DNA from: Rhizaria sp. SCN 62-66
Taxonomy: Eukaryota
Direction: 5' to 3'
NCBI GenBank assembly: GCA_001724265.1
Contig: MEDY01000115.1
Coordinates: 1 to 64,000, forward strand
Length of the DNA stretch: 64,000 bases
Numbering within the stretch: position 1 is the stretch's first letter; each line of letters opens with the position of its first letter. The position numbers and the translations under genes were made by a program. The notes beneath the pieces are model-generated. The model did not search any database. It saw only the letters and a program-made list of their open reading frames with translations, and was not told the origin of the DNA. Below are positions 2,650-63,203 of this stretch, piece by piece.

Positions 2650-3440
2650 CTAAAGTTGGTTTTTTGAACACTTTTCTAGGGCCAGTGATAGCAGCTGAGT
2701 TGGCTCCAGCATCAGCGCACTCACCGTTGATGCACAAAGTGGTTTAACAGTCTTTGTCAGCACTGCACAACTCTTCTTTGGGCCGCATGCAAAACAGTCA
2801 GTTCCCCTACATGTGTCAAGAGTGTCAATGGATTGAACAATGCTAGGAGTGCACTCCGCGAAGACGTTACTAGTAGTATAACATGCTCGTGTTGGGGAGC
2901 AGATAGGAGCCATCAGGCATACTTTCCGTCAGAAGATAGATGCATTAATACTACTTAGTAGTTGGAAGACCCAAGGCTATTTGTTACGTCATCGATGTTC
3001 TCGAAGTATTCTAGCGCTGGAAGAAACTTTGCCTCCACATAAAGAATGCCGATGTCGGAACGCTGAATATACATTTGTTTGCTACCCAACAAGCTCTCAA
3101 GATCACCGTTAACACTGTTGTTGAACTTGGCAGCCTCTGCCGCGGCCCATTCCGCTGACGTTTTGTTCTGACTTGTTCCATGGGGATCGTACGTTGCCGA
3201 GCTGATTCCAACCAGCCGATAAACGGGCTACTCATCGATTGCAGCGGTATTAAAGGCCGTCATCACTGCAATGTAGAAATACAGTTCCTGGGGCATGCGC
3301 GTGTTCTCCGTCAAGAACTGTAACCCGACACTGATTGTACTTGCTGTGCCGCGCTCAGACAACACCTCGAAGTCCCTCCCTCCACCCGAATAGAGGCTGT
3401 CATAAGACGTGGCGCTACCGGCAAACACGACGAGCTTGTA
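2650..3440 (-). pseudogene. Disrupted tandem paralog of the 830..2062 surface protein (C-terminal two-thirds)
   Basis: AGSATSYDSLYSGG..ISVGLQFLT matches AGASSPYNSSYASG..LYVGLSFAT. VGISSATYDPHGT matches VGIGGALYYPPGT. DCFACGPKKSC matches DCYACNAGQSC. Contains an in-frame TAG (3228-3230), a TAA (~2955) and frameshifts. No 5' part seen. Confidence 0.7.
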
Positions 3441-4195
3441 GAATACTAGTACAAAATACATACGAAGTAAGCTTATATTAATAAGTACATTAGTGTACTT
3501 ACATATATGTACTAGTACTAGTATTAATACTCGTACTCGTACTAGTCACGTGCTCTTACGTACCATCTGAGGCTGCTATTTTACTTGAATTACATGATAT
3601 ATTGACATTTAACATTTTTTTCACATAATACGGGAGAATCAAGAATTACAATTTCTTAATGTCCGTATATGCAATTTCTAATTATATTTTACTCACCCTA
3701 AAAGTTAAGTGTCATATTTCGTAGAGAATATAGAATTATATACAAAATTTCGACAGCGCACGATTTCAACAGCAATAAACACGTGGTTTTAACATTGAAG
3801 ATATGCAGAATTAGTTGTAAAAAGAATATCAAGCCTTTAATAATTTATGATATAGCTAGACATGCGTTTTTAAGGATTTATATGGAGTTATACCCACATT
3901 ATCTGGTTAAAAAACATTTCTGCCGTCAAAACAAACTCTTCGGAACCGAGAATATTGCAGTCATACTAAGTACTTACATGCACTCAAGGTTGGGTAACAG
4001 TGGATGCAAAGAAAATCACCATAGATAAAATAGGTCCGTATTGTTTGAAGCGGTTAACACACTTAAATATAAACAAGTGTCTTCGTGCCCTGCGGACATC
4101 GTACTACTAGTAGTACTAGTAATACTCTTGATACTAGTACGTACGCACAAGCAGGACTTATGAAATGTTCATAAGCTTACTAGTAATACTGTACA
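3440..4195. repeat. AT-rich segment bounded by ACTAGT/GTAC-rich imperfect inverted ends (possible decayed non-autonomous element)
   Basis: The left end (3440-3550) and the reverse complement of the right end (4100-4195) share GTAAGCTTAT...TAAGT...GTACTAGTA in the same order. It begins where pseudogene homology stops. Confidence 0.3.
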
Positions 4196-4999: not shown

Positions 5000-5958
5000 T
5001 CAGAGCTCATCCTTGTTTCCACTGCTGCTGCCGTTAGCAGCATCCTCACTTCCCACGGTGTTGTCGTACTCCGCATCCTCGTCGGGATCACGAGTCGGGA
5101 AAAACACGCCATCCTCCGTCACCCAGTGTGTGTTGTCATCCTGCTGCGCCGATGCCGACACCTCAAGCTGTCCAACAATCGGGCAATTACGGCAGTTTTG
5201 CTGGTTAAACGCATCGGCACGACGCGCGTACAGGGTTTGACCTGTGGGAACGTGGCGGAAACGGACCGGATGAGCGCGCTCCCAGTGGGTAGCGCCGGAG
5301 CGGATGCACTGAACCTCCCAGTTATCGTCTGAAGCATAGAACAACGATGCGAGAGCAGAACAAAAGCAAACAGAGCAAGGAACGAGATAAGGATGAGCTG
5401 AGTTTGATCAACATCACTGCATAGGAAAGGAGTCTTGACTACAAACTAAATAGAGTACCAAAAAGAGAAAAAAGCGCGATACAGATATACATATATTTGC
5501 AGAGAAAAGCGTGATCCAGAGAGAGTGTGCGTACCGCCGTTGGAAGACGCGGAGTCGAAGGCGCTGACTTCCTGGCGTCCACTGAGCGGCGAGCGGTGGT
5601 TGTGGGAGTGCAAGAACTTGTTCGTATTGCTGTGCAACAGGCGGATAATAGCGCCACAGCGAATGGCGTCGCCGTAGACGCAGGGCGGCTGTCCATCACC
5701 TTCACGAATGTTCCACAGGTCGTTGGTATCGGCGGGCGTCTTGCACGCAGTGACAGACTGTTGGCCAGAGCCAGAACCCCAGTTGATGGGGTGACTGTGG
5801 AGCATGTGCTGCGAGTTCTTGTGCTCAAGCTTCATCGTTGAGCCGCAGGTGACGAGCTTGTACTGCGGGGCGTCCTCGGCGAGAGCAGGGGAAGCCGTGG
5901 TGGAGACGAGCGCGATGGCAACGCAGGCAATGAGCGCCAGCCAGGGGCAGTACCTCAT
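5000..5958 (-). CDS. SDF2: Stromal cell-derived factor 2-like MIR-domain ER protein, 250 aa; exons 5958-5535, 5328-5000
   Basis: Signal peptide; VTCGSTMKL, LHSHPINWGSGSGQQSVT, LHSHNHRSPLSGRQEVSAF, GDDNW across the splice junction, WVTEDGVFF; C-terminal KDEL; TGA stop. Confidence 0.93.
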
Positions 5959-6367
5959 GGACAGCGGGCTGTGGGGCACAAGGAACAATGAGGAGAACGT
6001 GAGTAAAAATGAAGAAAGTTGCGTGCGTTTTTATCGCCAACATATCAGAATTAGATCATTTGACGTTGAACCGGTGACACAATAGACTGCGTTTGTTTTG
6101 CTGACCGTCCTCGATTTTTCTGGTCGGATCGGATTTTTCGGAACCGACCAAATAATTTTTGCTGCCACCACAAACCAAAACCGATGAACCCTACTCTTTG
6201 CTGCTTTGTGGATGCGCTCTAACAATCGTCACAAGCGTAAATGAATAGATGACCCAGGTTATCACTATGGTTACTATATGATATATCAATGATATACTGC
6301 AAGGTTCTTTTCTTACGTCAGTATCTCTCTACTAATCTGCCCCTACCTTCTCAGTCCCACACCTTCG

Positions 6368-10037: not shown

Positions 10038-13000
10038 ATGTCTCACCACAACAAGCACCACCAAAACCAGCAGCTCTCTCAGAACACCAAGTCACACCAG
10101 AAGCAGCAGCCACAGCAACAACAACAGGGTAAAGGCCAGAAACAGGGCAAGCAAGGCGGCGCTGCCAGCAGTCCCGGCAGTCGCTTCTGCGTTCTGGACA
10201 CCAGCAGCAGCGAAGGCGAAGACGAAGAGAACGACGACGACGACGACAACGACGACGGCGGCAACGTTAACAACAACGCTAGCAGTGGCAAGACTGCTAA
10301 CCGCAACTCAAAGTATCAGCCGCGGCTAATCGACGTCACTGTCACTCCTGACTCCGACGACAACAGCTCGATGCTTCGCAACACGTCAGCTCTTACGGCG
10401 TCAAAGCTTCTCTCCCAGCTCACTCTCTCAACGGGCGTTGCGCTCGCGACAAGCTCCGGCTCCTCTACAGCCAGCTCTAGCTCCAGCTCTGGATTGAGCG
10501 GTGGCCACAGCGCGGGGGCGGATGTTCTGAACGCAGCGCTGCCAGAAGTGGAGCTCTCGACCGTGGCCTGGGTAGCTCGTCGGCAGCGGCAACAGCAGAC
10601 GCTTTCGCTCGACTCGCGGCCCGAGCTCCAGCGCGCCGGCGTTTCTGCCGCAGCCGTCGCGGCGACAATCTCGGGTAAAATCCCGCAGAAGGAACTCCCT
10701 GTGAACGCGCTGGCGGCGGTGTGTCATGATATCGTGCTTGTTGACTTTGAGTGCACATGCGAAGCCGGGCGTAACCCTGGTTTTGCGTATGAAATCATCG
10801 AGTTCCCCGCTATCCTGATCGACGCGCGCACGTTACTTATTAAAGACGTGTTTCACACGTACATCAAGCCCTCTGAACGGCCTCAGCTGTCAGAGTTCTG
10901 CCGTGAACTAACCGGTATCACCCAAGACGTGGTCGACGCTGCGCCTGAGTTCCCCAGCGCTATGGCCGCGTTCTCCCTCTGGCTCGACAAGTGGGGGCTG
11001 AGCTTCCCTGCCCTGACGGCGCAAGCGGCCTCGCAGCCCCCCGTCCCTCCCCCCGGTTCCGCCGCCGCCGCCGCCGCTGCCGCTGCGGCTGCGGCCGGCG
11101 TACACATGACTGGCAAGAAAGCTCTTGCTTCAGTCAGCGCTGCTATGAGCAGTGGCGGCAAAGCGCGGCGCCTCGCGGCTGCGGAGGCGGAGGCAGAGGC
11201 GGAGGCGGAAGACCCGGCGTGGGTTGTGAGGCGTACGCCCTTGCATTCGCTGCTCTCCCCCTTGGTTGGCATCCCTCCAACCTCCACAACTTCCACAGCC
11301 TCAACAGCCTCAGCCTCAACAACAGCATCAGGACAGCACAATAAGCACTATGGGACGCATGTCGTGCATCCGTTGAACGCGCCGGTTCCTCCGCTGTTCG
11401 CGACAGTGAGTGGCCACCTGCTTTCGCCGGCATTGCAGCATCACCAGCAGCCGCTTGAGAAGGAGAAGGAGAAGGAGCTTGGACTCGAGATTCCCCAACC
11501 GGTTTCAAGGTACGTACGCTTTAAATTTTCTCTAAACCAAATATTTTTTTAAATCTTTATTGTATTCGTTTTATTATTTAAGTTATGTTTTATATTATGC
11601 CGTATTTTCTGCTTCTTCATCATCTTCCTCACGTTTTGCTTGTGTATGTTTTACCTTTTTAGGCGTCGTGCGATTTTCGCGTGCCACGGCCCCGCCGACG
11701 TGGGCGCTTTTCTCGCCCGCGAAGCCAGCCGCAAGGGCGTTGACCTGCGCTGGGCTCTGCGCACTGGTCTGCCCGGCAAGCCGATCGCAGCTCAGCCGGC
11801 AGTATCAACGCCGTCGCCGGTCAATACGAGCTCTCCTGCGGCGGCTGCGTTCAGTCCTCGTAACGGAACTGCGAAGTCGCGGAAGACCGGTAAGACGAGT
11901 TTCACCTGCCCTCCGCTTGACGACGACAAGAGCTCAACTACTACTACTACTACTACAGGCGATAAAGACGATAGTGCAAACAACAGCGCTATCAACGCCA
12001 GCGCGAGTGCGAGTGGAGCAGCTGGAAGCGCGCGTGTGGATAGCAACACCAGCGCAAGCGCGAGTGATACAGCGTGCGCAAGCGCAACAACCAGCAGTGC
12101 GACTGTGGACAACGACGCAAGCGCAAACACGGGCTTAAACGCGAATGAGAACACGGAGGTCAACTCATGCAGCAACAGCAACAGCAGCGCGCCTGCGCCT
12201 GCGCCTGCGAGAGTGAGTGCGAACGACGCTAGCAAGGCAGTTCATAAAGGCAAGTCAACCCACGTCTCTGCCGCCAAGGCTGCCGCACACATTAAGGGTG
12301 TGCCCGCGACCGGAAAGGGCGCGCCTGCATCTGCCTCAACGCCGCCGCCGAAGCTCTTCAGCTCCGGCAACGGTTTGCCAGGTTCACGCCGTGCCGCGGT
12401 CACCTCAGTGGCGAAGAAGCTCACCAACCTCGCGTCACAATACCCACCGGAGACTGTGCTAATGCCGTATATTGATATCCGGTACTCGTTTGCGTTGATG
12501 GCGCGCGCACTGAGGGCGCAGAAGAAGCTTGCTACGGGGGCGTATTCGTATACGGTGAATAATATGCTTGCGATGCTTGGGTTTTCGTTCATTGGGCGCC
12601 AACATGAGTACGTACTCAAAACATGACATCTCTCGATAATCATTGATATTCCGCATATATATTACTTTACGATCTGATCATGATAATGACTTATTTGTCG
12701 CGCCTTTTAGTGCGATGCTTACGTATTTTGTCTCATCTTACTTCTCACTTTGTTGATATCAACGCTGTTTTGTCTCTTATCAGTGGCATGGCGGACACAC
12801 TGAACATTGCCCGCGTGTTCACAGCAATGGCACAGACAGAGCATTACCCGTTTCCCAACGATATGTTCTCGTTTGATCCCGTGGAGGAAGCCACTGAGGA
12901 GACTCCTGCAAACAACAACAGCAACAACAATAGCAACAGCAGCAGCAACAACAACAATAACGATGACAGCGCTGGAATCTCGGCGAGTCTAGCTGATAAT

Positions 13001-13644: not shown

Positions 13645-16449
13645 ATGGCGTCCAGCGACAATGGTGTAGAGTTTTACTCTCGCTGGAACCTCGCCATTGC
13701 ACCCATCATGGCGCTTTCAACCGAGCTGTCGGACGTCAGGGCGCTTTACGTCTTTACGAGCTGGTACCCCGCGGACTGCCACATGCTAATGCGCGAAAAC
13801 GACATCGTAACTCTCCTCCTAAAGTCGCTTGGCTGTCTCACGAACGCCGAGGAGTGGCAGCGATTTGAGATCATCTTGCGTCTCTGCCACCGCAAAGATC
13901 GCGACACTCTGAAAAAAGACTATGCCTTCAGCAATATCATTGTTGAAACACTGTCTGCGTTGCTTACACGCATCCCGTCATCTTATCTTGCCCGCGAAAC
14001 GATCTTTCTCATCAGCGATCACACCTAGTCACCGCAACTCCTCCCGGAGGTTCGGCAAACAGCACTCGCGCATCTGATCGCATATTTATGCAACCCACGA
14101 CTGCAGGAGCTGCGGTGTCCGGCGCTGGACAACGAGCCGGTGGTTGACCGCGGCCACGTAACGCATGATGTATATGATGAATGGGAAACCTCTGCCCGCG
14201 TGTGTGCCGCTGCCATTGATCTCTGCACCGCCAACGAGCCTCTGCCATACTCTGCTGTGGCATGCTATATCCCACTGCTGTGCAATGAGTCGCAGCAATA
14301 TATTTCCAGTGTTTGGCACAAGCTTAGGGTTGGTGGCGCCTTCCGCAAACTTGTCACCACCATGTTTCAATGCGGAATCAACCGTACATGTAATGATCAC
14401 ACAAGCACTATAAACAGGAGCACAATGAGTAACGACGTCGTTGCTGCGCAACGTGATGTCATAACGTTTGCAACCCAAATTTTGTTCGAGCCCAAGCAAT
14501 GTTTGCATGATGACGACTCGTTTCAGACTCTGCAGTTTTTTGCGGCTTCTCTTGATGACGCATCACTTAAGCGTATCTTTACAGCAGAGTTTATGGCGGA
14601 GATTGTGGAGTCCCCCTCAGCACTCGTTCGCTTGCGGCTGCACAAACTTGAAGAGCACACTGCGCGCAAAGCTCGGTTTGAGCGGCAGTTGAATGAGCTG
14701 CAATTGGAGCTTCAGTAGACTGAAATGGGGCTGCTAGGTCGGCAACTGTTTCAACTGATGCATCAGAATCGTCGGGTGTATTCAATAATGGAGCAGCAGC
14801 AGTGGAGTGAGAATACTCGAGCGAGCGAGCGCGACATGGCCCAGCTACAACGGTGGGGGCACGAACCGTTTAACTCTCGCAACCCCTACCCAGAGACGCC
14901 AGTTGAGTACATGCCCCATCTGTTACACCGGGCTCAATTGCTCGAGACGCTTACGACACGTCTTCCATATCTTGGCCAAAACCTCTTTACAGGACAAGGC
15001 TTTTCTAACATGTTGAAGAATGCTATTGAAGCTCTTTCACGGAGCACAGAGAAGGAAACCGGTCGCTGTGACAATGAGAGCGCTAGCAAGCTTGTTCACA
15101 GCATTGCTCACATTTTTGATCGCGCGCTCAGCGCATCGGCAAACCCAGTCGTCACAGCGCAACAGCTTTTTGACAGCGGCGTCCTCCATTACTGCTGTTA
15201 TGTCCTCAGGAATATTGTTTTAGATCAGAGTACTAAAATCGCACACGATTCGAAGCCCGATAGAATGCTTGCCGAATCTGTCACATTTATGCTACGCACA
15301 TTGCACAACATGATTAAATGCAATGCCGCTACACCCGGCTTGGCATCGCCTGAGCATGATGCGCAACCGCAGGGTTTACCTGTGGCAGAGTTCATCGATG
15401 AACACGGCGTGGATCTACTTAAACTACTACGCTACACACCCACCGCGCTTTACGACGATAGCCCAGCACGGCAGGAGCTGAGCGAACTCTGTGCTTTGCT
15501 GCGGCAGATGCACGTCATTTCACGCGATGAGTTTGAACCAACGAACGAATAGGTGCAGCAAACTGTCACTGATGTGTGCCAGTTTTTGAACCACTGCGGT
15601 TCATGGGACACCGTTTTTGAGTAGTACAACGCACAGGTAATCCGTGCGAGCATTGTGAAGCCGCAGAGATGGTTTTGGTTTTTCTCAAAGCCTGCTGTAG
15701 TGCCACGGGCTTCTATACCTCCGACACCCGCCGCGCTCGCGGTGATACAAGGCTGGTCACGTGCTAACGTTGTTGGAGCTATGAACGATTCCGTATACTC
15801 CCATCATATGACGTCTGATATTTTGTTAAACATGTTTTTTCCTGTCCAGGACTACTGGAATGGCCACTCTTACAACGTGCGGATCCGGCTTGACGATTCA
15901 AACCTCCCAAGCCACACCGTTGATTTCCGTCTTGCACTTGCGAATGATAAGAATACGTTTTTTCTTCACCGTTGCTTTCTGCCACCCGGACAGTCTGCGT
16001 CAAAGCTGCCCGTTGTCACACTGTTTCGGTGGAATAAAGAGGAGCCTTGCGCTACAGCGCCGTTGGTGCTGCCCCAGACCGATCTCGTTTATGGCGAGTA
16101 CACTGCGCCCGCTGCCAGCGCGAGCATCACGTATCCCGCTGGCACCGTGTTGGCTTACCCACGCACGACTGTGTTTCCGACGAAGGTCAAATATACCAGG
16201 CCGCTTTTCTTTATCGTATATAAGCCGTGTGCGGCAAGCGTGATGCGCGGTGCTGTCCCTATTGGCCGCGTGATGTCGTGCGTCGCTGTAAGGGATGATG
16301 CAACGCCACCGCGCGACAGTGGGAATGAGCCCTTTGATGCGTTGGTGTTGCAGAAGTTTGAGGAACGACTCAACTCACGAGGCCGCTGCTGCTGTAAGAA
16401 CGAGCCCAACCACGCGCGAGTCCAGTTCTTGTCGTTCACTTCAAAATGA
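13645..16449 (+). CDS. Intronless 934-aa hypothetical protein (helical/ARM-like N-half, short coiled coil) containing four in-frame TAG codons read as sense
   Basis: Track ORFs at 13645, 14140, 14725 and 15655 are all in one frame. The only interruptions are TAG at 14026, 14716, 15550 and 15622, and the linkers are open. First non-TAG stop is TGA at 16447. Alternative reading: recent pseudogene. Confidence 0.65.
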
Positions 16450-17019
16450 ACTTGTAACGCTGCAACAAGCGATCGTCCTTAGTCCTCTGCGAAACAGAGT
16501 TTGCCGTTTACTGCAATTTAGTGTGGGCATTCAAACAACACTAAGAAGTATCAAAGGCGACGGTGTGTTTGTATGCCACTCGAGCTTCCCCATCTGACCC
16601 GGTCTTTTGGCGAATATGCGTCCCCTCCTGCCGGTGCTGGTGTGATGTTTCCTGTAGGCACAGTGTTGATATGCCCTCGTATCTCTGTTTCGCCGGGCTG
16701 CGACTCGAGGTCCGGGTGGGGTCGTCCTCTGTTCATTGCAAGTTTGATGAAGGCTGCCATTCCTGTTGGTCACTTAGAATCATGTGTGGCCGGTGCAGTT
16801 GCGGCAACACACGACGGCGGGGAAATGCCATTTGATGTGAAGTCATTGAAAGAGCTTTGTAGCACCAAGACACAGATCTGTAAAGAGTCTGTCACGAAAA
16901 TTTCCAAGTGACTAGACTGACTTCTTCTTGCTCAAGTGTCAGGTCGACATTCGTTAATACGAAGGCAGTTTCATGTGAGGATTAAATTTGTACAGTTAAC
17001 ACCAATTAAAATACAGCGA

Positions 17020-18379: not shown

Positions 18380-19254
18380 AAACAGCACACGCTCACGGCT
18401 GACACGCCCCAGTGTGGGCAAAAGAAACATGTCTGATTCTTCACGCTGACATGAGCTGCAACTGCATGATTCAGGTGACTCAACGCGCTGATAATGTTGT
18501 ATACATGGGTTGCCACGTCTATGCATTGTGTATATGCTTTGCTTGCGTGCACTTCCTTGTAGCTACTTTTGCGACACCGGTTTCTCAACTGAGCGCTGCC
18601 GTGACTTGTGTATAAGATCCGACATATGTACGTGAATATGCATCTCAGTCTCCCAAAATTTGCTGTTTTGAGTAGAATTTCTATGTATGTGTCATGATAA
18701 GAGTTCATTTGAAGTAGTAGCACTTGTTTTGATCATGTGTAACGTGCTCAAGACAGACTCAAAGGAGAGCCACCAGGCCACGCAGGATCACAAAATACTG
18801 GATATACCATGGAAACAAACCCCACACGAACCGTTACTTAGATACCCTATGTATAATACATATTCGAATCATATCCCGAGGAGTAGTTATACCATGACCC
18901 AGTTATGTTGAGCTATGTTTTATAATAGTATATATGCTCACGGTCACTATGACATGGCGTGCAAGCCCCTTCACGGGTTTGAAATCGAGCAACACTTCGC
19001 GGACATACCTCTCCCTCAAATCCCCGTCACGCGCACTCGGCCCATTATTATTTCTTGTGGCGTTGCATTTTATGATTATTTTATTTATATGTATGCAAAA
19101 GGATCCACACTGTGTTGTGATTAATGCGATATTCTCGCTGGACGAGAGGTGCCCATCGCACCACTCGTTCGCAACCATGCTCTCTGTTTTCTAGTCTCAC
19201 ACCTGCACTGTAACTCTCTGCTGTCTTATTACTGACTTCTGCCACAGACCCAAG

Positions 19255-42100: not shown

Positions 42101-45100
42101 CGCCGCCGCGTCCAAGGCCGCCGCCATCGCACCCCGCGCCGCGCGCGCCGCCGCCGCCGCCCGCGCCAGCGCCAGCGCCAGGGCATCCGCGGTCACCGCG
42201 ACGCCTGCGCCCGCGGTGGCGGGGGAAAAGTACCGCGCGGCGGCGTCGGCGGCGGCGGCCCGGACGCGGACTGCGAGCGCGACATCCGGCATCGACTGCC
42301 AGAGCACGAGCGAGTGTGAGAGTGAGTCTGTCGCCAGGAGCAACGCGGCGGCGTCGGCCGCGGCCTCGGCGAGAGCTTCGCTCGCGCTAGCGGCGGCGGG
42401 ACTGAGGGACGCTTGAGAGGCTTGAGAGGCTGAGGTTGTGATGGCTGAGGGGAGGCCCTTAGGCCTGCTGCCACCCCTAGCCCTGCCAGACTTAGACTGG
42501 CGCTGGCGGGGACGTTTAGAGGTAGCGCCGCCCGCGCTCGCGCTCACATTCGAGTAGGAGCCAATAGTACTGAGACTGGTGTAAGTGGCACTTAGAGCAG
42601 AGTACATGGCGCCAGTAACGGCGAGCAAAGGCACCAATTCAGCCTCAAAGCATCGTAGAGCTTCTAACGCGCTCTGCGCAGCGCCAGTAACACGCGAGGT
42701 ACTCATGGTACTTGTGATGTTTGTGCTAGGGTTGTGGGAGAGAGATAAGAGACCAAGCGTGGTGTCAGTGGCCTGTGTGTGCAGGCCCGCCATTGCAACG
42801 GCCCCGAGACAGGACTCCGAGGAGCTGTCTAAGTAGCCATTAGACGCGTCTAAATACCCGCCGGTTGCGCTAGTCGGACACAACGCAGCGTCAGCAGCAG
42901 CCAACACAATAGCAGTGCTTACATGGGCATTGTTGACCGCACCAGGAGCGTAGACGCCCCGCGCTTGACTGTTCGCGGTGTTCTTTGCCGCGTGTGCGTT
43001 CGCGTTGGTAGAAGCAGGGTAGAGAGCAGCAGCAAGAGCGGGTGCCCACGCTGGAGCAGCAGGCAGGAATAATGCCGCTGTAGGCACACTCACGACCACA
43101 CTGTGATATCAATAATATCAAAAACCAAGATTCGGGATATACAACAAACAAGATGAGAGTGATGCAAGGAAATATTTTGCCTAAGCATAATTTTTTTACA
43201 ACTTTTAGCACGTAAAAAACGACATCGTTACAAATGAAACTGTTAATCGTGAGATATCTAGGTTTGAGTGAGATAGACGAACCTTTCTCCAGCGCCGCCC
43301 CCGCCGACAACCCCACTCAACCACCCTTTGTTGCTGCTGGCGCTGCCGCCGCCGCCACCGCCTGTGCCGGCCGCACCGCCGGTGAGGGCCAGCCCCGCCG
43401 CGTCCGTGCCCATCGCGGACCCCGCCGCGCCGCCCGCGCCGCGCTGCCACACCGCAGCCAAGGAGTGCTTCAGGCGGGCTTTGCCGCCCGCGTGGAGGCG
43501 GTGTAAGGGGAAAACACTTGCGACCGGGGGCGTCAACCGGGCGGGGACAGAGGGCCAGGGCCGGGGGTCAAACGCCGCCGTCGCAGCCGACTGCAGCGCG
43601 ACAGAAGCAGCGGCGGCGGCAGCAGCAGCAGCAGCAGCGGCGGCGGCGGCGGAGCCCGAGCGCGTGCCTGAGTTGTTGCTATTGGCAGGTGTCGCAGTGT
43701 TGGCGAAGCGGGCAGCGTTGAACGCCGAGAGCGCTGCGAGAGCTGTGGTGTTAATCAGAAGCGGGAGTCGAGGGTCGGCCGGGTGCAAGGCGACGGATTC
43801 GGGGCTGAGCTGCAGGGGCGCGGCGGCGCGGGACCACGGCAAGGCCGCCCAGTCCTGCGCTGCGCGGTGGCTAGACAGAGCGATGCCCGTGACTGTTGAC
43901 GGGGGAAGGCTGGACGGGTGGCGGCCGCCGCCGCGGAAGCCGGAGCCGCCGGCAGTGGCGACGGCGGCGGCGGCGGAAGCCAGCGCTGTGCCAAGATAGC
44001 TACGGAAACAAGGGGGCGCAAAACAAGAAAAAAAAGAGGGAAATGCGTGTGAGGCGTGGAGTGAAAAAAACGTAAATATGATAACACTGATTAAAGGTAC
44101 TTTTTGGAGATAATCATTTCTAGTTTTGGTGAGAGATATGTTGACTTACGCAGCGGTAGTCGCAAAGGCTTTGCGGGCCAGAGGGGCGAGGTGAGTGCTG
44201 GCAGCTGCCGACGCAGCAGCTGAGGCTGCAGCGAGCCGGGAGCTCGAGCCAGAGCTTGCGTTTGCAGAGGCAGCAGCGGCGGCAGCAGCAGCGGCGGCTT
44301 GCTGTTGTTGTTGCTCTTCGCGCTGTTTGCGCTGCTGTTGCTGCAACTGCGTCTGTTGCTGCTGCAGTTGTTGCTGCTGTTGGGAAGGGAACGCGTGAGC
44401 ACCAGCGCTCACCGCGTACACGACAGAATTCGCGTTTGCATGAGCACTCGCATTCGTGTTGTTGTTATTGTTGTTGCTGATGTTGTTAAAGATACGAGAG
44501 ACGAGGGCGATGCCTTCAGCACGCGCGCGGAGTAACAATTGCGCCTCCGTCTCCCCTGCTTCTTTACTATGGGCGAGCTCCTGGCGGCTTAACTTATCCG
44601 CGTTTTGGGGCAGTCCCATCTCTGAGCGCACTCCATGCAACGCTCGTGAGAACAACAGAGAGCCATAGTTGGCGTCCGTGAAATCCCCCGCCTCGGTACT
44701 ATGGGACGCACTGTTGTTATAGTAGTCGTAGTGGAAAGTGTCGTCATCACAGAGCCAGGCGCGTGCAAGCGCCTTGGCCGCCAAAGCCCGTGCACTGAGC
44801 TTATAGCTATACGCAGCAGCAGAACTATGGGAACCCGTGACCCCACATGTACTCGCGGCAGCACTTGCACCGACGCTATTGTTATAGCTGCCAGTAGAGT
44901 TGTTGTGATAGATGTTGTTGTTTTGGGCCGTGACCGTGACGCCGGCGCGCGCGGCGCGTGCTTGACGCCTGTTTTCCGCCGCTGCGGCGGCTAAGCCTGC
45001 GCTCATGCTCTCCACAATCTCCCCAACCACCGCCGCCGCCGCCGCCGCAGATTGCGACGGCGACTGCGCCTGCGAGGAGGTGTTCTGAGCATATGTGGGT

Positions 45101-52657: not shown

Positions 52658-55160
52658 TCACTTCCCACTGTTCGCGGTGTTTGCAACACTCGCACCAACC
52701 CCAGCGCCAGTGCCAGCGCCAGCGCCAGTGATGCCGGCGTTAGGCATAGGCGCGGACAGAGGCACAGTCGCGGACGCAACACCGCCCGGGAGCACCATGC
52801 TTGCCAGCGGCAACGGCGCCGCGGCCGCAGCAGCGGCACTCAGAGGCAGGAGAACCGGCGCGTGTGTGTGCAAAGGCCCCTGCTGCTGCGCTCCGGTGGC
52901 GGGAACAGCGTTCGCGCCAGCGTTCATCGGATGACTCTGCTGCTGCTGCTGCGGCTGCTGCTGACCCGGGTACTGCTGGTGTTGCTGTTGGCCGAAGGGA
53001 CCGGTAGGGAAGCCGGCCCAGGACTGCCCGTGGACACCCCGTACACCTGCCGCGTTCCCGTACGGGTACTGGCCGTACGCACCATAGCCGCTGGTGTTGT
53101 TGACGTTGTTGGTATTCCCGTTCCCGCTGGCGTTGGCGCTAGGGTCGACGTTTGTACCGTATACAGCAGCGCTGATGTGTGCGAACAGCTTCGGCGCCTC
53201 GCTGCGGTCAAATGACAGCTCCTGCTTAAGAAACTCCGGGTACTGAACACCTGCCAGCGCAAACTCAACGGGCACATACCGCATGCGCGCGGACCGGCGG
53301 GACGCAATGAGCTCCATCTTGATGAACCGCGCGGCGTCGGCGTCCTTCAAGCTCACCGCGTAGGACATCTTGTGGTAGCCAACGTCGGTGGGCTGCTTCA
53401 CTTTGAACCCGGTCAAACCGCGGTACGCCGCCACAACGTCTTCGAGAATGCCAAGCTTAACGGCGGCGGCGTCGAGCTGCTTCGCGTGCTGCTGCTGCGC
53501 CTGCGCGGCTTCCGCCTGCAGCGCCTCCGTCAGCGCGGTTTGCGTGTGCAGCAGTGCAGCGAGCTTCGACAGTTCTTCGTCCTTGGCGGCTGCCTGCTCA
53601 CGGTCGCGGCGCTGGCGTCCGGGGCTCGGCAGCGCGGCGCGATGCTGCGCGTTGATGCGAGATATGTGCTCCTTGAGTTCTGAGATCGTGCGTTCGCTCT
53701 CCGACTCGCGCGCGCGCCAGAGAGCTTCAGTACGCGTGCGTTCAGCGGCGACGGCGGAGTCGACGGAGGACTGCAGGGCTTCGTAACGGCTCGTAAGCTC
53801 GTTGTAAGCCTTCTGCAGCGCAATGTAAGCCGCGGGACTCGTGACACCCGCGACGGTACCCATGCCAGCAGCACCCGCACCAGAGCCAGTGCCGGCAGCA
53901 GCAGCAGGAATACCCGCGCGGAGATTGCTCGACGACAACGTAGAGGCGAAGTTAGAACCCGCATTGCCTGCGGTGTAGCTTGCGTTGTGCGCAGTAGCAG
54001 CGTTGGCGGCGGCCGAAGCGGCTGCGGCAGGACGAGGGCGTTTGCTGTTGAAAACGAGGCCACTGTCATCGTCCTCCACCGCAGCGCCCCTGATGCCACC
54101 ACCGACAGCGCTGGCACTACTGCTGCTGGAGCTCGAGCTAGCGTTGTTGTTGATGTCGCTGCGAGCGCGGGAGTTGGTGTTGGCCGCCGAAACGAGCGAA
54201 GGAACAATCGAAGGTGCGAGCAGAGTTGCGTCCAAGTCAACCGCGTTGGTATCATCGTTGCTCTCGAGGCTATCGCTAACGCTGGCGACAGCATTGAGAC
54301 TCTTTGCAGTGCTAGACACCCGGCCCTTAGCTGCCGCACTAGTGGCCTTGCCACCGCCTGTCACACTGGCACTGCTAGAGCTCGCGTTGTTGGTGGTGGT
54401 GTCTTGTTGTGAGCCGCCTGAGGCTTCCTGGGCGGCTTGCCTTGCGTAGAGGGCCTTCTCCTGCTCCGGCAGCTCAGCCCAGAGCTGCTTGATACGAGAC
54501 TTAAGCTCGGCCATGGTCAGCAGCGGCCAACGCTCCTTGCAGGGTCCGATGGTGGTGCTTGCGAACAGCGCGAAGCCGGACTCCGCAGTGTACAGCACCC
54601 TCCCCCCGGCCACTGCCCCAGAGGCAGTCGCAGCGGCATTCGCGTTGTCCGCCGGGGCGGGCGCGGGGGTCTTGCTCTTGATCGCGCTTGCAGCAGGTTT
54701 GCTCGCAGCAGCAGCCGCAGCAGCAGCGGTAGTTGAGGAGCGTTTGGGGCGGGACGGTGTGGCAGCGGCGGAGGCTGAGCTTGGCACGGCTGAGCTCGAG
54801 TCGCCGTTGCCGTTGTCGCTGTCTTCAGATTGCTCCTCAACAATGGGGGACGCGAGGGCGCGCTTGCGGCGGGCGCCAGGGGTGGCTGCGGCAGTGGCGG
54901 TGGTCGTCTTGGGGGTTGTAGTCGGGGTGACTGCGGAGTTGGCGGCCGAGGTGGAGCGGGCTGACGAGCGACGCGGCGCCCGGGCTAGAACGCAATACAA
55001 ACACAAAAACAAACCAGAAATACAGTGTGAGAGTAAGACATAAAGCAATTTATTATGTGAATAAGGTTTCATAGCGATAGAGAGACGTTGAGTTGAGAGA
55101 GTCGGGAAGGGGAAACGTACCTGACTCCGAAACCTTGGTTGAGGAGGAGCGGGTCGACAT
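52658..55160 (-). CDS. HMG-box + coiled-coil + Csm1/Pcs1 (monopolin)-like RWD domain protein, 788 aa; exons 55160-55121, 54984-52658
   Basis: HMG box SGFALF..MAELKSRIKQLWAELPEQEKALY; heptad region; C-domain YRGLTGFKV..MRYVP..YPEFLKQELSFDRSEAPKLFAHI, resembling the Csm1 pattern LTG..Y-P..P-YL-E-I-F----A-KF. TGA stop. Confidence 0.72.
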
Positions 55161-58607: not shown

Positions 58608-60585
58608 TTAATCCTTGGTGATCTGGCGGCCAATGATGACACGCATGACATCGTTGGCACCCTCGAGGATCTGGTGGACGCGGAGGTCACGGACGATCTT
58701 CTCCAGGGGGAAGTCCTGTATATAACACACAAAAGACAACACGCAATTTGAAGCGATTCAGAGTTGGAATCGGATCATGACGGTCGAGACAGAGAAACGA
58801 GAAGAGAGAAGGTGAGATCCAAATGTGAAGAACTCCCGGGGACAAATACATATGTCACAATAAAAATGAATCACAAACGTGATAATACGTAAATACATTT
58901 AAACATTATATATAGTTCCGCATGTAATTATACCATTGAGATATTGCTGTTGAAAGATGAGAACACGTACCTGGAGGTAGCCGTAGCCGCCGTGGAGCTG
59001 CAGCGCGTCGTTGGCGACCTTGGAGCCGATATCAGTGGCGAAGCGCTTGGCCATCGCGCAGTGAAAGGTAGCCTCGGGCGCATCGGCGTCGACGAGCGAG
59101 GCGGCACGGTGAACCATGAGACGGGCAGCGGTGAGCTCAGTCGCCATGTCGGCGAGCTTGAATTGCACGCCCTATACTCACATAGAAACAAAGAATTGAA
59201 GACATAGATGTTAGTATATTTCTGTAACAATAAGAAACAGAATTTTGGTATAGATAATACATATTAATACTTAGTTTTAGTTTACGTATCGAGTATATAA
59301 TCAAGAAACACTTTGTTTTCGTAACCGTACCTGGAGAGTGTTGAGGGCAGCGCCGAACTGCTTGCGCTCAGCAGTATACGCACTCGCAGCGTTGAAGGCT
59401 GATTGGGCACCACCGAGCGACAGAGCCGCAATGTTAATGCGGCCGCCGTTGAGACCGTGCATGGCGGCGTTGAAGCCCTTGCCCTCGACACCACCGATAA
59501 GGTTCTCGGCAGGGACGACGACGTTCTCAAGGAACACCTTTAGAAGGCAACGCATGAAGTTGCATAAAGTGAAATTAAAAATAGAAGATCGTAACATTTC
59601 AAGCTTAAACTAGCACAGCACAAAGATATAGTAGCAATACATATGAATCCATCGCAATAAATTATGTCGATAGTCTATTTATGAAGATATATATGAAATG
59701 AGTGAACGTACCTGGGCGGTGGTGTGGGCGTGCCAGCCCATCTTCTTTTCCTTGGCGCCGAACGAAACACCGGGCATAGTCTTCTCAACGAGGAACGCGG
59801 AAATACCCTTCGCGCCGGGGCCGCCAGTGCGCGCCATGACGATGTAGTAGTCACTCTCACGGGCGCCAGAGATGAACACCTTCTGGCCGTTGAGCACGTA
59901 GGTGTCGCCCTCCTTGCGTGCGGACGTCTTAAGTGAGGCCGCGTCGGAGCCGGCGTCGGGCTCGGTAAGGCAGTAGGAGGCAAACTTGCTCAGGTTGGTC
60001 ATCTGGGGCAGGAAGCGCTGGCGCTGCTCGGGGGTGCCGAACTTGTCGATCATGTAGCTGACCATGTTGTGCACGGTGAGGTAGGCAGTGGTGCCGGGGC
60101 AGGCGGTGGCGAGCGCCTCAAAGATGAGAGCAGCGTCGACACGAGAGAGGCCCATGCCGCCGACGTCGTCGGCGATGTAGACGGAGGCAAAACCCATCTC
60201 GGCGGCCTTGAGGTACATCTCGCGCGGGAAATGACGCTCTTCGTCCCACTTGGCGACGTAGGGCTTCATCTCCTTCTCGGCGAAGATGATCGCGGACTCC
60301 TGCAGATACTCATAGAGCAAAACAAAATGTGGATATTTAGGTACAAGCTCTCGTACTGCATCATTCAGTCGTTTTTGAAAGGGATACTACTAGTGGGGGT
60401 TAGATAACGATAGGACGAACCTGGATAGAGCGCTGCTCGTCGGTGAGGCCGATGGTGGGGTCGAACTTCATGGCACGGCGCGCGGCACTGGCGTGGAAAG
60501 ACGCGGCCGCAGTCGCGGAGACGGCGGAGGATGCCTTAACGGCGGCGCGGCCGAGGGTGGACTTACTGAGGCGGGAAGCAAGCAT
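58608..60585 (-). CDS. ACAD8: Isobutyryl-CoA dehydrogenase (acyl-CoA dehydrogenase family 8), mitochondrial, 422 aa; exons 60585-60421, 60299-59712, 59537-59331, 59171-58971, 58715-58608
   Basis: [76 protein letters not shown]; mitochondrial-type presequence. TAA stop. Confidence 0.93.
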
Positions 60586-60989: not shown

Positions 60990-63203
60990 TCAGTCTGACA
61001 TTGGGCTCGCGACGCGGCCAGTGTAACCGTCCATGCCTCCCCAACCGCCCGCAAGCGCTGTTGCAAGGTCCCCTGCCCACGTCGGCAGCACCGCAATCAT
61101 GGCCACGCAAAACTGCATGTGCCACGGCAGCCACATCTCGCTCCCACCAGTGCTTGGTTCGTAGCACACACCGATAGAAGGCGAGTTGGAACACTGGTTG
61201 GACGCGTTACTTGAGTTTTTAACGCTCTTACCTGCAGTAGTCTCGTCATTCTTTGTCACATCACCGATATAACTCGACGCGTTTGCAAGGGATGTCGCCG
61301 TTTTACGAGTCAATTTGACCGCGTTAGTGGATGCACGTGTGACATCACGCATAATAGCGTCTGCCACAGCTTCGGCCTTTAGGGGCGGGAATATAAGCCG
61401 CACCCACAGAGGCAGCGTGATGCCAGCGAACATCTGCGTGTCGATATGCCACGGTAACACAGTCAGAGTACGCAGGAGCGGTGATAGCGAGCTCGGTAAG
61501 CCACAACTCGTCGCGCTGTGGTCGGGACGCTGTTGTTGCAACTGCTGAACAGTCGCTTGTTGGTTCTGCTGTCCAGACTTGAGCTCCTGGTGTTGCTGTT
61601 GTTGCTGTTGCTACTGTTGTTGATGATGTTGCTGTTGTGCAAGCTGTTGCAGCCAGCGCGGCGGAGGCACCACGCAAGCTAATGGGGTTGCGCCATAAAC
61701 CCACTCGAGGAATCTAAGTACCCCCTTAGACTTCGAGACACCACCACATACATTTACATCCTTCGAGCTTGACAATGTCGAGGACGTCTCCTTGAGTGAA
61801 TCCAGCCGGTGTGCGCGCATTGCATGGGTTAACGCTGCCTTGGATGCAACGTAATCACTGAGACCGGCGGCATACGACGAAGCTGAAGCGGATGATACAG
61901 CGATGAACTGGAATTGCGGCCATGGAGCCCAGATCTTCTGTTCGTTGGTGCTAGAAACAGCATTAGCGCTCGCAACATTAGCGTTCGCATTGTCTAGCTC
62001 GATATTGGGACTCTTGTTCATCAACACGCTTGCCTTGGTGATTGCATTCGTATTATTCGTGTTTGATGCAAGATAATGATGTGAAGCGTGCTGACGGTAG
62101 TCTTGGGCGTACGTGCTATACATCAACGAGAGTAGCTTCATTGGTGCAAACGCATTCACCGCCAGAGTGCGCTCCCACTCACTCATCTGAGGTTGAGTGT
62201 TCGTCGCGTCTAAGGGGGTACTTAGAGCGGGGTTAGCCTTCGACCAAGCAGGACCCGTCGTCACTCTACCGGCGTTGCTAATGATGACATGTGGCAGAGC
62301 AACACTATCCTGGCCCAAAGCAGCCGCAGCAGCAATGACACTGACACTAGCAGCAGCTGCTGCAACATCAACTTTGGCTGCTGTTGTTGTGAATGCGGGG
62401 GTGGTGGCGAGAGGCAAGGCACGCCATGCCGCTGCGAGCGCACTGGAATCAGCCACATCGACGACAAACGCCGTCACAAAGACGTCATTTTTCGGAACCA
62501 CGGGCTCGGGGAACGCAGCTGGCACGGCGGGGTAGTACGCATCGGCAGATTTAGGGCTTGCAAAAACATCATCGTCATCGTCAGCGTTGGTCTCGTCGTT
62601 GTCGTTGGTGATGACGACACAGTCACTTGCTGTTGTCGGAACTGTGCCAGGCGCAATCTCAATGTCACCAGCAGTACCACAAATCTTAACACAAGGCACG
62701 TGCTTATGAGTCGGTCTAGTGCCATTGCTGTCTTTACAGTTGTGCTTTGAGCGCGGCTTTGCGGAGGCAATGTGTCGTTCGAAGAGGGTGACTCGACAGC
62801 CTTGCTTGATGAGAGCAGTGCAGAGCTTCCGGAGCGCGGGCTCGTCGTTATCCCAGAGAACAACGTGACGCGCACCGGCGTCAAGAACACGGCGAGCGAG
62901 GAGCACGCCGAGACCTCCGGCAGCGCCAGTTAAGAGGACAGTTTGCGAGGCCAAAGGGGGCAATCCGATAGCACCTTCTTTGCTGACGGTGCCAGCACTG
63001 GGGAGAAATGAGGAGAAGATACGTGTGCGCATTTTGAGATATAACGCATATAGCGGTTCGGCAGCGTGTAGTAATATGACGACAGTAAGTGCGCATAATG
63101 TGGCAACGCCAGTCGCGTGCACGAGGGCGTCTAAAAGCCCCATGAGCCACTGCGCTGCTCCTGCGCGAACTGAAGGCATGAAAGTGTCGGGGAAGTGAAG
63201 CAT
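60990..63203 (-). CDS. Membrane-anchored short-chain dehydrogenase/reductase (RDH10/17beta-HSD11-like), 737 aa, intronless, with one in-frame TAG at 61611-61613
   Basis: TVLLTGAAGGLG, VVLWD, VDVAD, IISNAG, TLAVNAF, VSSAS and YVASKAA lie before the TAG. LRTLTVLPWHIDTQMFAG..PPLKAEAVADAI lies after it in the same frame. Ends at TGA. Confidence 0.85.

Follow-up and report, generated by a model that had tools for sequence, protein, structure and literature searches.

In-frame TAG codons in two genes of an uncultured wastewater eukaryote and the possible translation of UAG as glutamine

A TAG codon that lies in frame within a run of glutamine codons may either end the protein or be translated, and if translated it raises the question of which amino acid it specifies. 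Here the question is posed by an SDR-like gene in a 64-kb stretch of a 151-kb contig (hereafter the window, meaning the whole 64 kb analysed). The window carries genes on both strands and was assigned to the nuclear DNA of an intron-bearing uncultured eukaryote represented in wastewater or bioreactor metagenomes; related contigs are up to 113 kb long.

The SDR-like gene on both sides of its TAG

The SDR-like protein has an N-terminal hydrophobic helix, the motifs TGAAGGLG, SNAG and S...YVASK, and several low-complexity inserts. The features of its gene are as follows:

60990..63203, minus strand: SDR-like gene, 737 codons if the TAG is read, ending in TGA at 60990-60992
62907..62930, minus strand: TGAAGGLG dinucleotide-binding motif (sequence, Pfam and PDB search)
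61839..61853, minus strand: YVASK (Y451...K455), the putative SDR catalytic Tyr/Lys motif, 5' of the TAG
61583..61649, minus strand: CAA/CAG/CAT/CAC repeat (poly-Gln/His) holding the TAG (Tandem Repeats Finder, periods 3, 9 and 27)
61497..61649, minus strand: lineage-specific Gln-rich stretch, about residues 519-569 (alignments A1 and A3)
61611..61613, minus strand: in-frame TAG, codon 531 of the gene
61356..61496, minus strand: conserved block 3' of the TAG, residues 570-616, with columns invariant with P0087 and P0003
61014..61157, minus strand: conserved C-terminal block, residues 683-730, 58% identical to P0087 over 48 residues (E 3e-15)

On the 5' side of the TAG, 530 codons are open from an ATG at 63203. 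On the 3' side, where the first-pass annotation of this DNA had estimated about 200 further codons, we counted 206 up to the TGA at 60990-60992, a frame that would stay open by chance with a probability of about 3e-4 given the composition. The minus strand reads CAA CAG CAA CAT CAT CAA CAA CAG TAG CAA CAG CAA CAA CAG CAA CAC CAG, which bears out the placing of the TAG in a CAA/CAG tract, and the segments LRTLTVLPWHIDTQMF and PPLKAEAVADAI, said to lie 3' of the TAG, are both found there. The same annotation had seen no AT-rich intron around the codon; consistent with this, no AT-rich island overlaps the TAG, the 180 bases 3' of it have a GC content of 0.56, and the 5' splice motif GT[AT]CGT does not occur within the gene on its strand.

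The continuity of the protein is established by an orthologue from another metagenome (P0087, 508 aa), which is encoded by an uninterrupted ORF at 124-1647 of a 1.7-kb sequence (L001) and ends in TAA. It runs collinear with the window protein before and after the TAG, over residues 44-161, 243-608 (E 2e-47) and 683-730. This orthologue is devoid of the poly-Gln insert, and only about 10 of its residues (AYSALNTGNR) match the Gln-rich stretch 519-569. The block at residues 570-616 has the motif P..L.PLL.T....PWHIDT.MF.GITL...V...FPPL.A.AVADA, and that at residues 683-730 the motif ...GGSE.WLP...LPT..GD...AGGWGGMDG..GR. Judged by these sequence comparisons, both flanks of TAG 61611-61613 belong to one orthologous protein. 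Only one relative of the SDR-like protein was found among 5.8 billion proteins.

It is this orthologue, rather than the SDR fold, that carries the argument for continuity. Pfam assigns adh_short to residues 87-144 (E 7.6e-9) and also finds KR (E 2.2e-6). The stretch with S...YVASK weakly matches positions 132-166 of the Pfam adh_short profile (E 0.055) and, using profile A1, the PDB SDR 5if3 (E 0.037), and the Pfam match stops short of profile positions 168-195. Searching PDB sequences with the whole protein returned matches to the N-terminal Rossmann part only. Residues LPWHIDTQMF, 3' of the TAG, resemble what we take to be the PG-x-x-T type of strand and loop that follows YxxxK in SDRs. The earlier claim that this strand lies beyond the TAG thus holds for the position of the residues; their identity as an SDR element comes from resemblance to a motif and gains no support from the searches or from the AlphaFold model. 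None of the three PDB matches to residues 569-634 (E up to 10) is an SDR, and the AlphaFold2 model, made from a two-row alignment, has a mean pLDDT of 33 and is unusable. The post-TAG piece matched glutathione S-transferases at E 0.8-1.6, which we took as chance. The window protein agrees with classical SDRs (PF00106) in having TGxxxGxG, the NAG motif and a putative S...YxxxK in canonical order, but differs from them in its 737 residues, its low-complexity inserts (at least five) and its extra conserved C-terminal block (GGWGGMDG).

The TAG itself is also seen in independent data. A contig from another study and another year (record 23 of run X4) covers 61191-62677 with no differences from the window, so TAG 61611-61613 is not an assembly slip. 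Contigs of X2 break at the repeat (61583-61640), and the TAG is not bridged by them. Residue 530 is also exactly where two database gene calls, P0225 and P0001, come to an end; these are on record from 5 + 2 contigs, making seven contig records, and the database entries for the protein are stubs of 473 and 530 residues. Within the gene, RNA contigs cover only 61876-62112 (X12) and 62634-62784 (X5), and none from these two runs lies over the TAG or the 3' part. The RNA contig of the neighbouring gene extends to 60777. The room for a 3' UTR is thereby about 210 bases if the stop is the TGA at 60990, and more than 800 GC-rich bases if the stop is the TAG at 61611.

The first-pass annotation had regarded the balance of TAG and TAA in poly-Gln tracts across the genome as informative. 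Counted within the window, this balance is one TAG in the Gln frame (61611) and no TAA. The pattern (CAR)3-TAG-(CAR)3 occurs twice in the window, compared with no occurrence in 100 shuffles; the second copy, at 12922-12942, is read as poly-Asn/Ser in the sole long open frame there.

A second gene with four in-frame TAGs

A second TAG-bearing gene lies elsewhere in the window:

13645..16449, plus strand: second TAG-bearing gene, encoding a 934-residue protein (P0002) of an uncharacterised family and ending in TGA
14026..14028, plus strand: TAG 1, residue 132, with a residue at this column in 16 homologues
14716..14718, plus strand: TAG 2, residue 362, where an insert borders the aligned sequence, with a residue in 19 homologues
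15550..15552, plus strand: TAG 3, residue 640, in a well-aligned region, with a residue in 25 homologues
15622..15624, plus strand: TAG 4, residue 664, in a well-aligned region, with a residue in 25 homologues

Its 935 codons include these four TAGs in frame and neither TAA nor TGA. The alignment comprises 28 of the 83 homologues found, and at each of the columns 640 and 664 a residue is present in 25 of the 28. All 20 of the homologues looked up come from metagenome sources only. Database calls divide the gene into four fragments bounded by the TAGs; at the level of gene calls these fragments recur, and a call from a variant strain (P0004), which over 255 residues shows a single real difference apart from that at its start, ends at residue 639, which is the same place. 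On the alignments, UAG in this gene must be read four times for the whole protein to be made.

Terminators, introns and composition of the window

Two further features concern gene ends and introns:

58608..60585, minus strand: isobutyryl-CoA dehydrogenase gene, the intron and terminator reference, ending in TAA and split by four AT-rich GT..AG introns (RNA, Pfam and homologues)
43243..43260, minus strand: the sole TAG gene end (43258-43260), with an in-frame TAA five codons on (43243-45)

Across the 21 gene ends scored, a small sample that leaves out the LSM and peroxiredoxin ends with their uncertain last exons, the terminator is TAA in 11, TGA in 9 and TAG in 1. AT-rich DNA lies 3' of the TAA and TGA ends (20/21), and over the 180 bases that follow, GC content is 0.34-0.53 for the terminators, compared with 0.52-0.59 for the five internal TAGs. 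For the two TAG genes, codon-usage log-odds with the long ORFs as training set failed to tell coding from non-coding sequence; because these scores are dominated by Ala-rich low-complexity genes, GC content was used instead.

In the reference gene, the splices of an X5 RNA contig (58714/58970, 59170/59330, 59535/59710 and 60298/60420) delimit four AT-rich introns of 121-255 bases that start with GTACGT, GTTCGT or GTACGG. Neither an AT-rich island at any of the five TAGs nor a GT[AT]CGT motif on the strand of either TAG gene was found. The in-frame TAA joins, at 11550 and at 44146, are each within an AT-rich island, and a GT[AT]CGT site adjoins the former. A sense meaning of TAA was rejected, as both of these joins are introns and 11 genes end in TAA.

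The in-frame stop codons of the two TAG genes comprise five TAG, no TAA and no TGA, whereas off-frame the counts are 20, 43 and 82; such a TAG-only pattern has a probability of 5e-5 by composition and of 0.004 if each codon is given one third. TAG use is nevertheless uneven. The TAG-bearing genes are 2 of about 22, namely the two with the lowest GC3, and four of the five TAGs fall in one gene (p = 0.006). A further 12 long pieces of ORF, with 8294 codons of which 255 are CAA/CAG, have no in-frame TAG, so that relative to Gln-type codons TAG stands at 5 per 87 in the two TAG genes versus 0 per 255 elsewhere (Fisher p = 0.001).

Further candidates for sense TAGs were discarded: three joins (54447, 24199 and 7137) run antisense to other genes, that at 5446 is inside an AT-rich intron, and those at 19192 and 40228 are upstream of start codons. 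A putative third case is an exon-like ORF at 2958-3545 on the minus strand, which includes a TAG (3228-3230); Pfam and PDB yielded no relatives of it, the best E of 0.58 being taken as chance. When 175 small ORFs were read with TAG as Q, seven matched Pfam, in five families (MIR, Leu_Phe_trans-like, dynein light chain, LSM and peroxiredoxin), and no TAG fell at a conserved column. The 64-kb window contains no tRNA or other RNA gene detectable by ARAGORN or Rfam, and no eRF1 gene.

The meaning of UAG

We favour, at a probability of about 0.52, the reading that UAG is translated as a sense codon, most likely glutamine, while UAA and UGA terminate. In the SDR-like gene, whose product would be a membrane-anchored oxidoreductase, the ribosome would pass TAG 61611-61613 within the Gln-rich insert peculiar to this lineage and would complete the protein at the TGA at 60990. 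The inserted residue would most likely be glutamine. The tRNA bringing it would presumably have arisen from tRNA-Gln and carry a CUA anticodon, and the release factor eRF1 would no longer recognise UAG well. We count the uneven use of TAG, the Q-poor columns, the one TAG gene end, the lack of a tRNA gene in the window and the p = 0.06 of a C-to-T-only mutation model as points against this reading.

Glutamine had been proposed by the first-pass annotation. The readthrough that this implies is upheld by the collinear P0087, by the bridged TAGs of the second gene and by the 20 of 21 gene ends in TAA or TGA; glutamine itself is plausible. TAG 61611-61613 is one transition from CAG and lies within a CAA/CAG run. 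At sites 132, 362, 640 and 664 of the second gene, all four of them variable, Q is found in 1/16, 0/19, 2/25 and 0/25 homologues, respectively. Because true CAA/CAG sites of this gene are also Q-poor (a mean of 16% Q in homologues, with 14 of 36 sites devoid of Q), the low Q at the TAG columns is compatible with glutamine and not diagnostic. As the columns do not settle the matter, the assignment rests on context and precedent, which make glutamine plausibly the likeliest meaning of UAG here.

As for precedent, a change of UAG only to glutamine, with UAA still a stop, is described for Iotanema spirale, Protocruzia tuzeti, Hartmannula sinica and Trochilia petrani (PMC11687900). The window resembles the lineages so described in its homologue-bridged in-frame UAG, in UAA and UGA still being stops and in UAG being almost unused as a stop. 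It differs in the extent of use: H. sinica and T. petrani are reported to have internal UAG in 78-84% of genes, amounting to 18.5-31.8% of Gln codons (PMC11687900), compared with 2 of about 22 genes and 5/342 Gln-type codons here. Unlike in the UAG-only Gln lineages, UGA is as common a stop in the window as UAA (9 versus 11). The window, with its 121-255-base AT-rich introns starting GTACG, its GC-rich exons and its 64 kb of a 151-kb contig, is presumably also unlike ciliate macronuclear DNA. Moreover, a mitochondrial-type presequence on the acyl-CoA dehydrogenase would argue against the anaerobe Iotanema. The code with UAR as glutamine (NCBI table 6), attributed to many ciliates, Hexamita, Streblomastix, ulvophycean algae and Amoeboaphelidium (PMC11687900), likewise represents capture of stop codons for glutamine and has the reassigned codon within Gln-rich tracts. 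It differs from the window, where TAA terminates 11 of 21 gene ends and in-frame TAA joins occur only in introns.

That UAG is a sense codon for some other residue (Leu, Glu, Ser, Ala, Tyr, Lys or another) we consider unlikely. Leucine and alanine prevail at site 640 (8 and 7 of 25), as does alanine at site 664 (14 of 25), and by summed column scores A, S, K and T stand above Q; these differences, however, are below 1 bit per sequence and concern variable positions, and 14 of 36 true Gln sites equally lack Q. At site 640, Q is present in P0041 and in P0018, the locally closest homologue there. Any residue might be tolerated in a disordered insert, and since the non-Gln codons of the tract (CAT, CAC and TAG) are each one step from CAA/CAG, the tract would tolerate meanings other than glutamine; the position of the TAG within the CAA/CAG run nonetheless speaks for glutamine. 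Changes of UAG to Leu, Ser and Glu are documented elsewhere, with UAG-only change to Leu described for an uncultured rhizarian and three TARA phyllopharyngean ciliates, and to Ser for Scotinosphaera (PMC11687900). In the Leu and Ser lineages UAG and UAA differ in meaning (PMC11687900), as they would in the window, and in each case UAG would be expected to be read by a tRNA(CUA). Unlike in the UAG-to-Leu lineages, the context in the window favours glutamine and the column scores disfavour leucine, which scores worst among the plausible options over three sites; neither point is decisive.

Next in order, and again unlikely, comes an ambiguous UAG. It would act as a stop in some contexts, and in a small number of genes with weak expression a near-cognate tRNA or a suppressor tRNA of low level would decode it, either as an early or partial stage of reassignment or as programmed readthrough. 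The sparse, clustered use of TAG in the two genes of lowest GC3 would fit such ambiguity, as would the one TAG gene end with its back-up TAA, and context-dependent codes are described in ciliates (PMC11687900). Four TAGs in one gene, however, would leave little full-length product unless decoding were efficient; the bases following the five TAGs (T, A, G, T and C) share no context or known readthrough motif, and TAG is nearly absent as a terminator (1/21).

A standard code is improbable; under it, both TAG genes would have been truncated or have lost their function, as nonsense alleles or as pseudogenes of recent origin. Such a code would agree with the lack of TAG in all other long ORFs and with the treatment of the TAGs as stops by database gene callers, and if only C-to-T changes in Gln codons are considered, the chance of five out of five being TAG is p = 0.06. 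Against inactivation stand two unrelated genes of about 22 affected by TAG only, with no TAA, TGA or frameshift in 737 + 935 codons; frames after the TAGs whose openness by chance has a probability of 3e-4 to 3e-6; parts 3' of the TAGs that keep family-conserved blocks; coding-level GC that persists after each TAG; and the recurrence of the same TAG-bounded fragments on 4-7 contigs and in the variant strain. The caveat attached by the first-pass annotation, that of a single CAG>TAG nonsense allele, is accordingly weakened and yet keeps some force. Removal or alteration of the TAGs in mRNA, through unconventional short introns or U-to-C editing to CAG, is very improbable, as nothing like the RNA-shown introns flanks the TAGs and excision would delete positions 640 and 664, which are aligned to residues in homologues. 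Nothing direct speaks for such a change, and none of the five TAGs is covered by an RNA contig.

Returning to UAG as a translated codon, we tentatively suggest, as a doubtful extension, that the source may be an aerobic eukaryote, rich in introns and in GC, which belongs to none of the lineages known to recode UAG and is at an early or partial stage of UAG capture. Equally tentative is the corresponding picture of the codon: UAG would be translated and nearly abandoned as a terminator, would occur only rarely, at about 0.5 per 1000 codons, and solely in genes of weak bias, and might still stop translation where a back-up TAA follows. A scan of metagenomes for further DNA of the organism or its relatives found only the orthologue-bearing L001 and L002, the latter discarded as a chance match (GC 0.66); scans of GTDB genomes, with profile A4 and with an exact 30-mer, gave no match, and the literature matches listed held nothing relevant on wastewater protists with stop-codon reassignment.

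A split in meaning between UAG and UAA is described as rare, known from a handful of lineages (PMC11687900). Such a split bears on the capture of a stop codon without its wobble partner. The present case would probably add one more to the UAG-only reassigned codes and, if true, a further lineage in which the codon is used little and unevenly would give a view of reassignment at an early stage. Because standard gene callers cut proteins at TAG, annotations of such metagenomic eukaryotes would be systematically truncated.

The isobutyryl-CoA dehydrogenase carries no taxonomic signal, its homologues in alphaproteobacteria, in a green alga and in a chytrid being 57-72% identical. The habitat is one with repeated sampling, from 2015 to 2025.

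One protein on either side of an internal TAG

Most probably (about 0.85, all variants together), the organism of the window translates UAG and terminates at UAA and UGA. If true, its code would join the few known ones in which UAG and UAA are uncoupled. The features concerned are the following:

60990-63203 (-), SDR-like gene, in-frame TAG 61611-61613
61583-61649 (-), period-3/9/27 repeat containing the TAG run of this gene
13645-16449 (+), second gene, in-frame TAGs 14026, 14716, 15550 and 15622, ending in TGA

The minus strand from 63203 to 60990 is a single long frame whose sole interruption is the TAG, in the context CAA CAG CAA CAT CAT CAA CAA CAG TAG CAA CAG CAA CAA CAG CAA CAC CAG. The first-pass annotation had described a TAG inside a CAA/CAG tract, followed by about 200 codons and then TGA 60990; this is confirmed, with 530 codons before the TAG and 206 after it up to TGA 60990-60992. 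At this composition, a 206-codon open frame has a chance of p = 3e-4. Compared at the contig level, the TAG is real and not an artefact: an assembled contig from a different study and year (X4, record 23) spans 61191-62677 with 0 differences from the window, and two catalogued gene calls, P0225 (530 aa, equal to residues 1-530; 5 contigs) and P0001 (473 aa; 2 contigs), stop at this codon. Contigs of run X2 stop either side of the CAA/CAG repeat (61583-61640), with reads flagged as cut there, which could reflect a k-mer repeat break or a tract length polymorphism.

Reading the TAG as an amino acid gives a 737-residue product with an N-terminal hydrophobic helix, TGAAGGLG, SNAG and S...YVASK; Pfam adh_short matches residues 87-144, including TGAAGGLG (E 7.6e-9). 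Among 5.8 billion proteins, one relative cluster was found (near-length and shorter candidates). Its long member, P0087 (508 residues), comes from an ORF without interruption (124-1647 of metagenome contig L001, TAA end) and is collinear with the SDR-like protein from the N-terminal helix through the C-terminus, in three aligned segments:

Window-protein residues 44-161
Window-protein residues 243-608, 37% identity, E 2e-47
Window-protein residues 683-730, 58% identity

Invariant columns are abundant 3' of the TAG (PLL.T....PWHIDT.MF.GITL, FPPL.A.AVADA, GGSE.WLP, AGGWGGMDG..GR). By sequence comparison, therefore, the two sides of the TAG are one predicted protein, and since both flanks occur in one orthologue, a whole protein requires the TAG to be read. 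The Gln-rich stretch with the TAG (about residues 519-569) is among five or more low-complexity inserts (Asp/Asn-, Ala-, Asn-, Gln- and Ser/Asn-rich) that are specific to the window lineage and without counterpart in the orthologue; P0087 has about 10 residues in place of this stretch. Tracts of Ala, Ser, Gln and Asn are likewise frequent in many other window ORFs.

As in the first-pass annotation, we tentatively take the block after the TAG, by its motif, to be the SDR strand following YxxxK; the searches and the fold do not confirm this. The Pfam SDR match ends at profile position 166-167, a PDB sequence search with the post-TAG piece found no SDR, and the AlphaFold2 model of the protein has a mean pLDDT of 33.

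A second TAG-bearing gene and the use of stop codons

The protein of the second gene falls in a conserved family that has no name, no Pfam entry and no relative in the PDB; 83 relatives were recovered by a full HMMER search. Members (P0007-P0086) came from metagenome sources only in 20 of 20 looked up, and one peptide pattern searched in GTDB prokaryote genomes found none. Four of the 83 are catalogued gene calls of the locus itself, bounded by its TAGs (residues 5-131, 265-361, 385-639 and 726-938), and such fragments repeat on 4-7 contigs. P0004, a variant-strain gene call, has one real difference in 255 residues (D401V) apart from its start residue, and likewise terminates just before TAG 640. 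In the alignment at the TAG sites (28 of the 83 relatives), the columns of TAG 640 and TAG 664 fall within well-aligned stretches, and 25/28 relatives have a residue at both. The terminal TGA looks like a true stop, because homologue ends coincide with it. Immediately 3' and in the same frame, 16450-16908 (+) has 153 open codons with TAG read (TAGs at 16480 and 16519, near the start) and encodes a diverged second copy of the family C-terminal motif FGEY..GTVLICPR..RPLF..IPVGH..C..PFD; this could be what remains of a duplication, or else an exon lying downstream.

Stop triplets of the SDR-like and second genes, pooled
TAG: in frame 5, off frame 20
TAA: in frame 0, off frame 43
TGA: in frame 0, off frame 82

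That all in-frame stops of the two genes are TAG has p = 5e-5 by composition, and 0.004 at one third each. Listing every pair of frames that a single stop separates, each frame having at least 100 codons, gave 23 pairs, with TAG as the joining codon in 7, TAA in 6 and TGA in 10. Of the TAG joins, those at 54447, 24199 and 7137 run antisense to other genes, that at 5446 falls within an AT-rich intron, and the remaining three are the SDR join and two second-gene joins. TAA joins 11550 and 44146 lie within AT-rich islands, 11550 also with GT[AT]CGT at 11510, and are therefore introns.

The 21 scored gene ends comprise 11 TAA, 9 TGA and a single TAG (43258-43260, -), in a BCAS3-like gene with an in-frame TAA five codons on; GC drops there from 0.75 to 0.34 (43243-43260, -). 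LSM and peroxiredoxin genes were left out (last exon uncertain). Eight small genes were delimited with TAG open; they lack any TAG, so the count stands for them. GC in the 180 bases 3' of terminators is 0.34-0.53, and 0.52-0.59 3' of the five internal TAGs. The RNA contig of the gene next to the SDR-like gene extends to 60777, so that a 3' UTR following TGA 60990 has room for about 210 bases.

Uneven TAG use and the amino acid

Several observations count against the reading. In 12 further long ORF pieces (8294 codons, 255 CAA/CAG), 0 TAGs are in frame and 114 off frame, an uneven use relative to the TAG-bearing genes (Fisher p = 0.001); four TAGs in a single gene have p = 0.006. GC3 is lowest (0.56-0.58) in the SDR-like and second genes. 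A passage of PMC11687900 gives internal UAG in 78-84% of genes of known UAG=Gln ciliates, whereas use here is sparse and uneven, unusually low for a code uncoupling UAG from UAA. The 64-kb window holds no tRNA or other RNA gene.

The two genes could instead be pseudogenes. If stops arise only by C-to-T in Gln codons, five TAGs of five have p = 0.06, so this reading is weakened mainly by other facts: neither gene has frameshifts, conservation is retained, the TAG-bounded ends recur across assemblies and in a variant strain, and the terminator pattern speaks against it. An exon-like, non-repetitive open frame at 2958-3545 (-), with in-frame TAG 3228-3230 and local GC 0.50, could be a third gene with sense TAG; a search for its relatives found none.

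The full statement, that UAG is reassigned specifically to Gln as first proposed, is slightly better than an even bet. The readthrough part of that proposal is upheld by the orthologue, collinear on both sides; Gln itself is rare in the homologues at the TAG sites of the second gene.

Homologue residues at the second-gene TAGs (numbered by residue of its protein, P0002)
TAG 132: Q in 1/16, commonest E, R
TAG 362: Q in 0/19, commonest R, T
TAG 640: Q in 2/25, commonest L (8), A (7)
TAG 664: Q in 0/25, commonest A (14)

At the genuine CAA/CAG positions of this gene, 36 in all, homologues average 16% Q, and at 14 of them none has Q. The candidate residues are not distinguished by empirical column scores, A, S, K and T lying slightly above Q and L scoring poorly. 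The poly-Gln setting of the SDR TAG is a suggestive but weak pointer to Gln; CAT and CAC, the tract's other non-Gln codons, likewise lie one step from CAA/CAG. Gln is favoured because UAG-only changes to Gln have precedents, a section of PMC11687900 naming Iotanema spirale, Protocruzia tuzeti, Hartmannula sinica and Trochilia petrani; UAG to Leu, Ser or Glu is also documented there.

Host and gene structure

The window is eukaryotic, metagenome-derived DNA, occurring in runs from bioreactors, wastewater and activated sludge that cover several studies and the years 2015 to 2025. An isobutyryl-CoA dehydrogenase gene (58608-60585, -) adjoins the SDR-like gene, with strongly GC-rich exons, an N-terminal presequence-like stretch and four AT-rich introns (GC 0.35-0.39) starting GTTCGT, GTACGT, GTACGG and GTACGT; in run X5 an RNA contig shows splicing at exactly these four, the RNA contigs being from a wastewater cDNA library. 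The gene architecture is presumably unlike that of the ciliates that account for most known codes separating UAG from UAA. A MIR-domain protein at 5003-6030 (-) has an in-frame TAG within an AT-rich intron, and its last exon ends in ...NKDEL, a tail that we take to be ER-retention-like.
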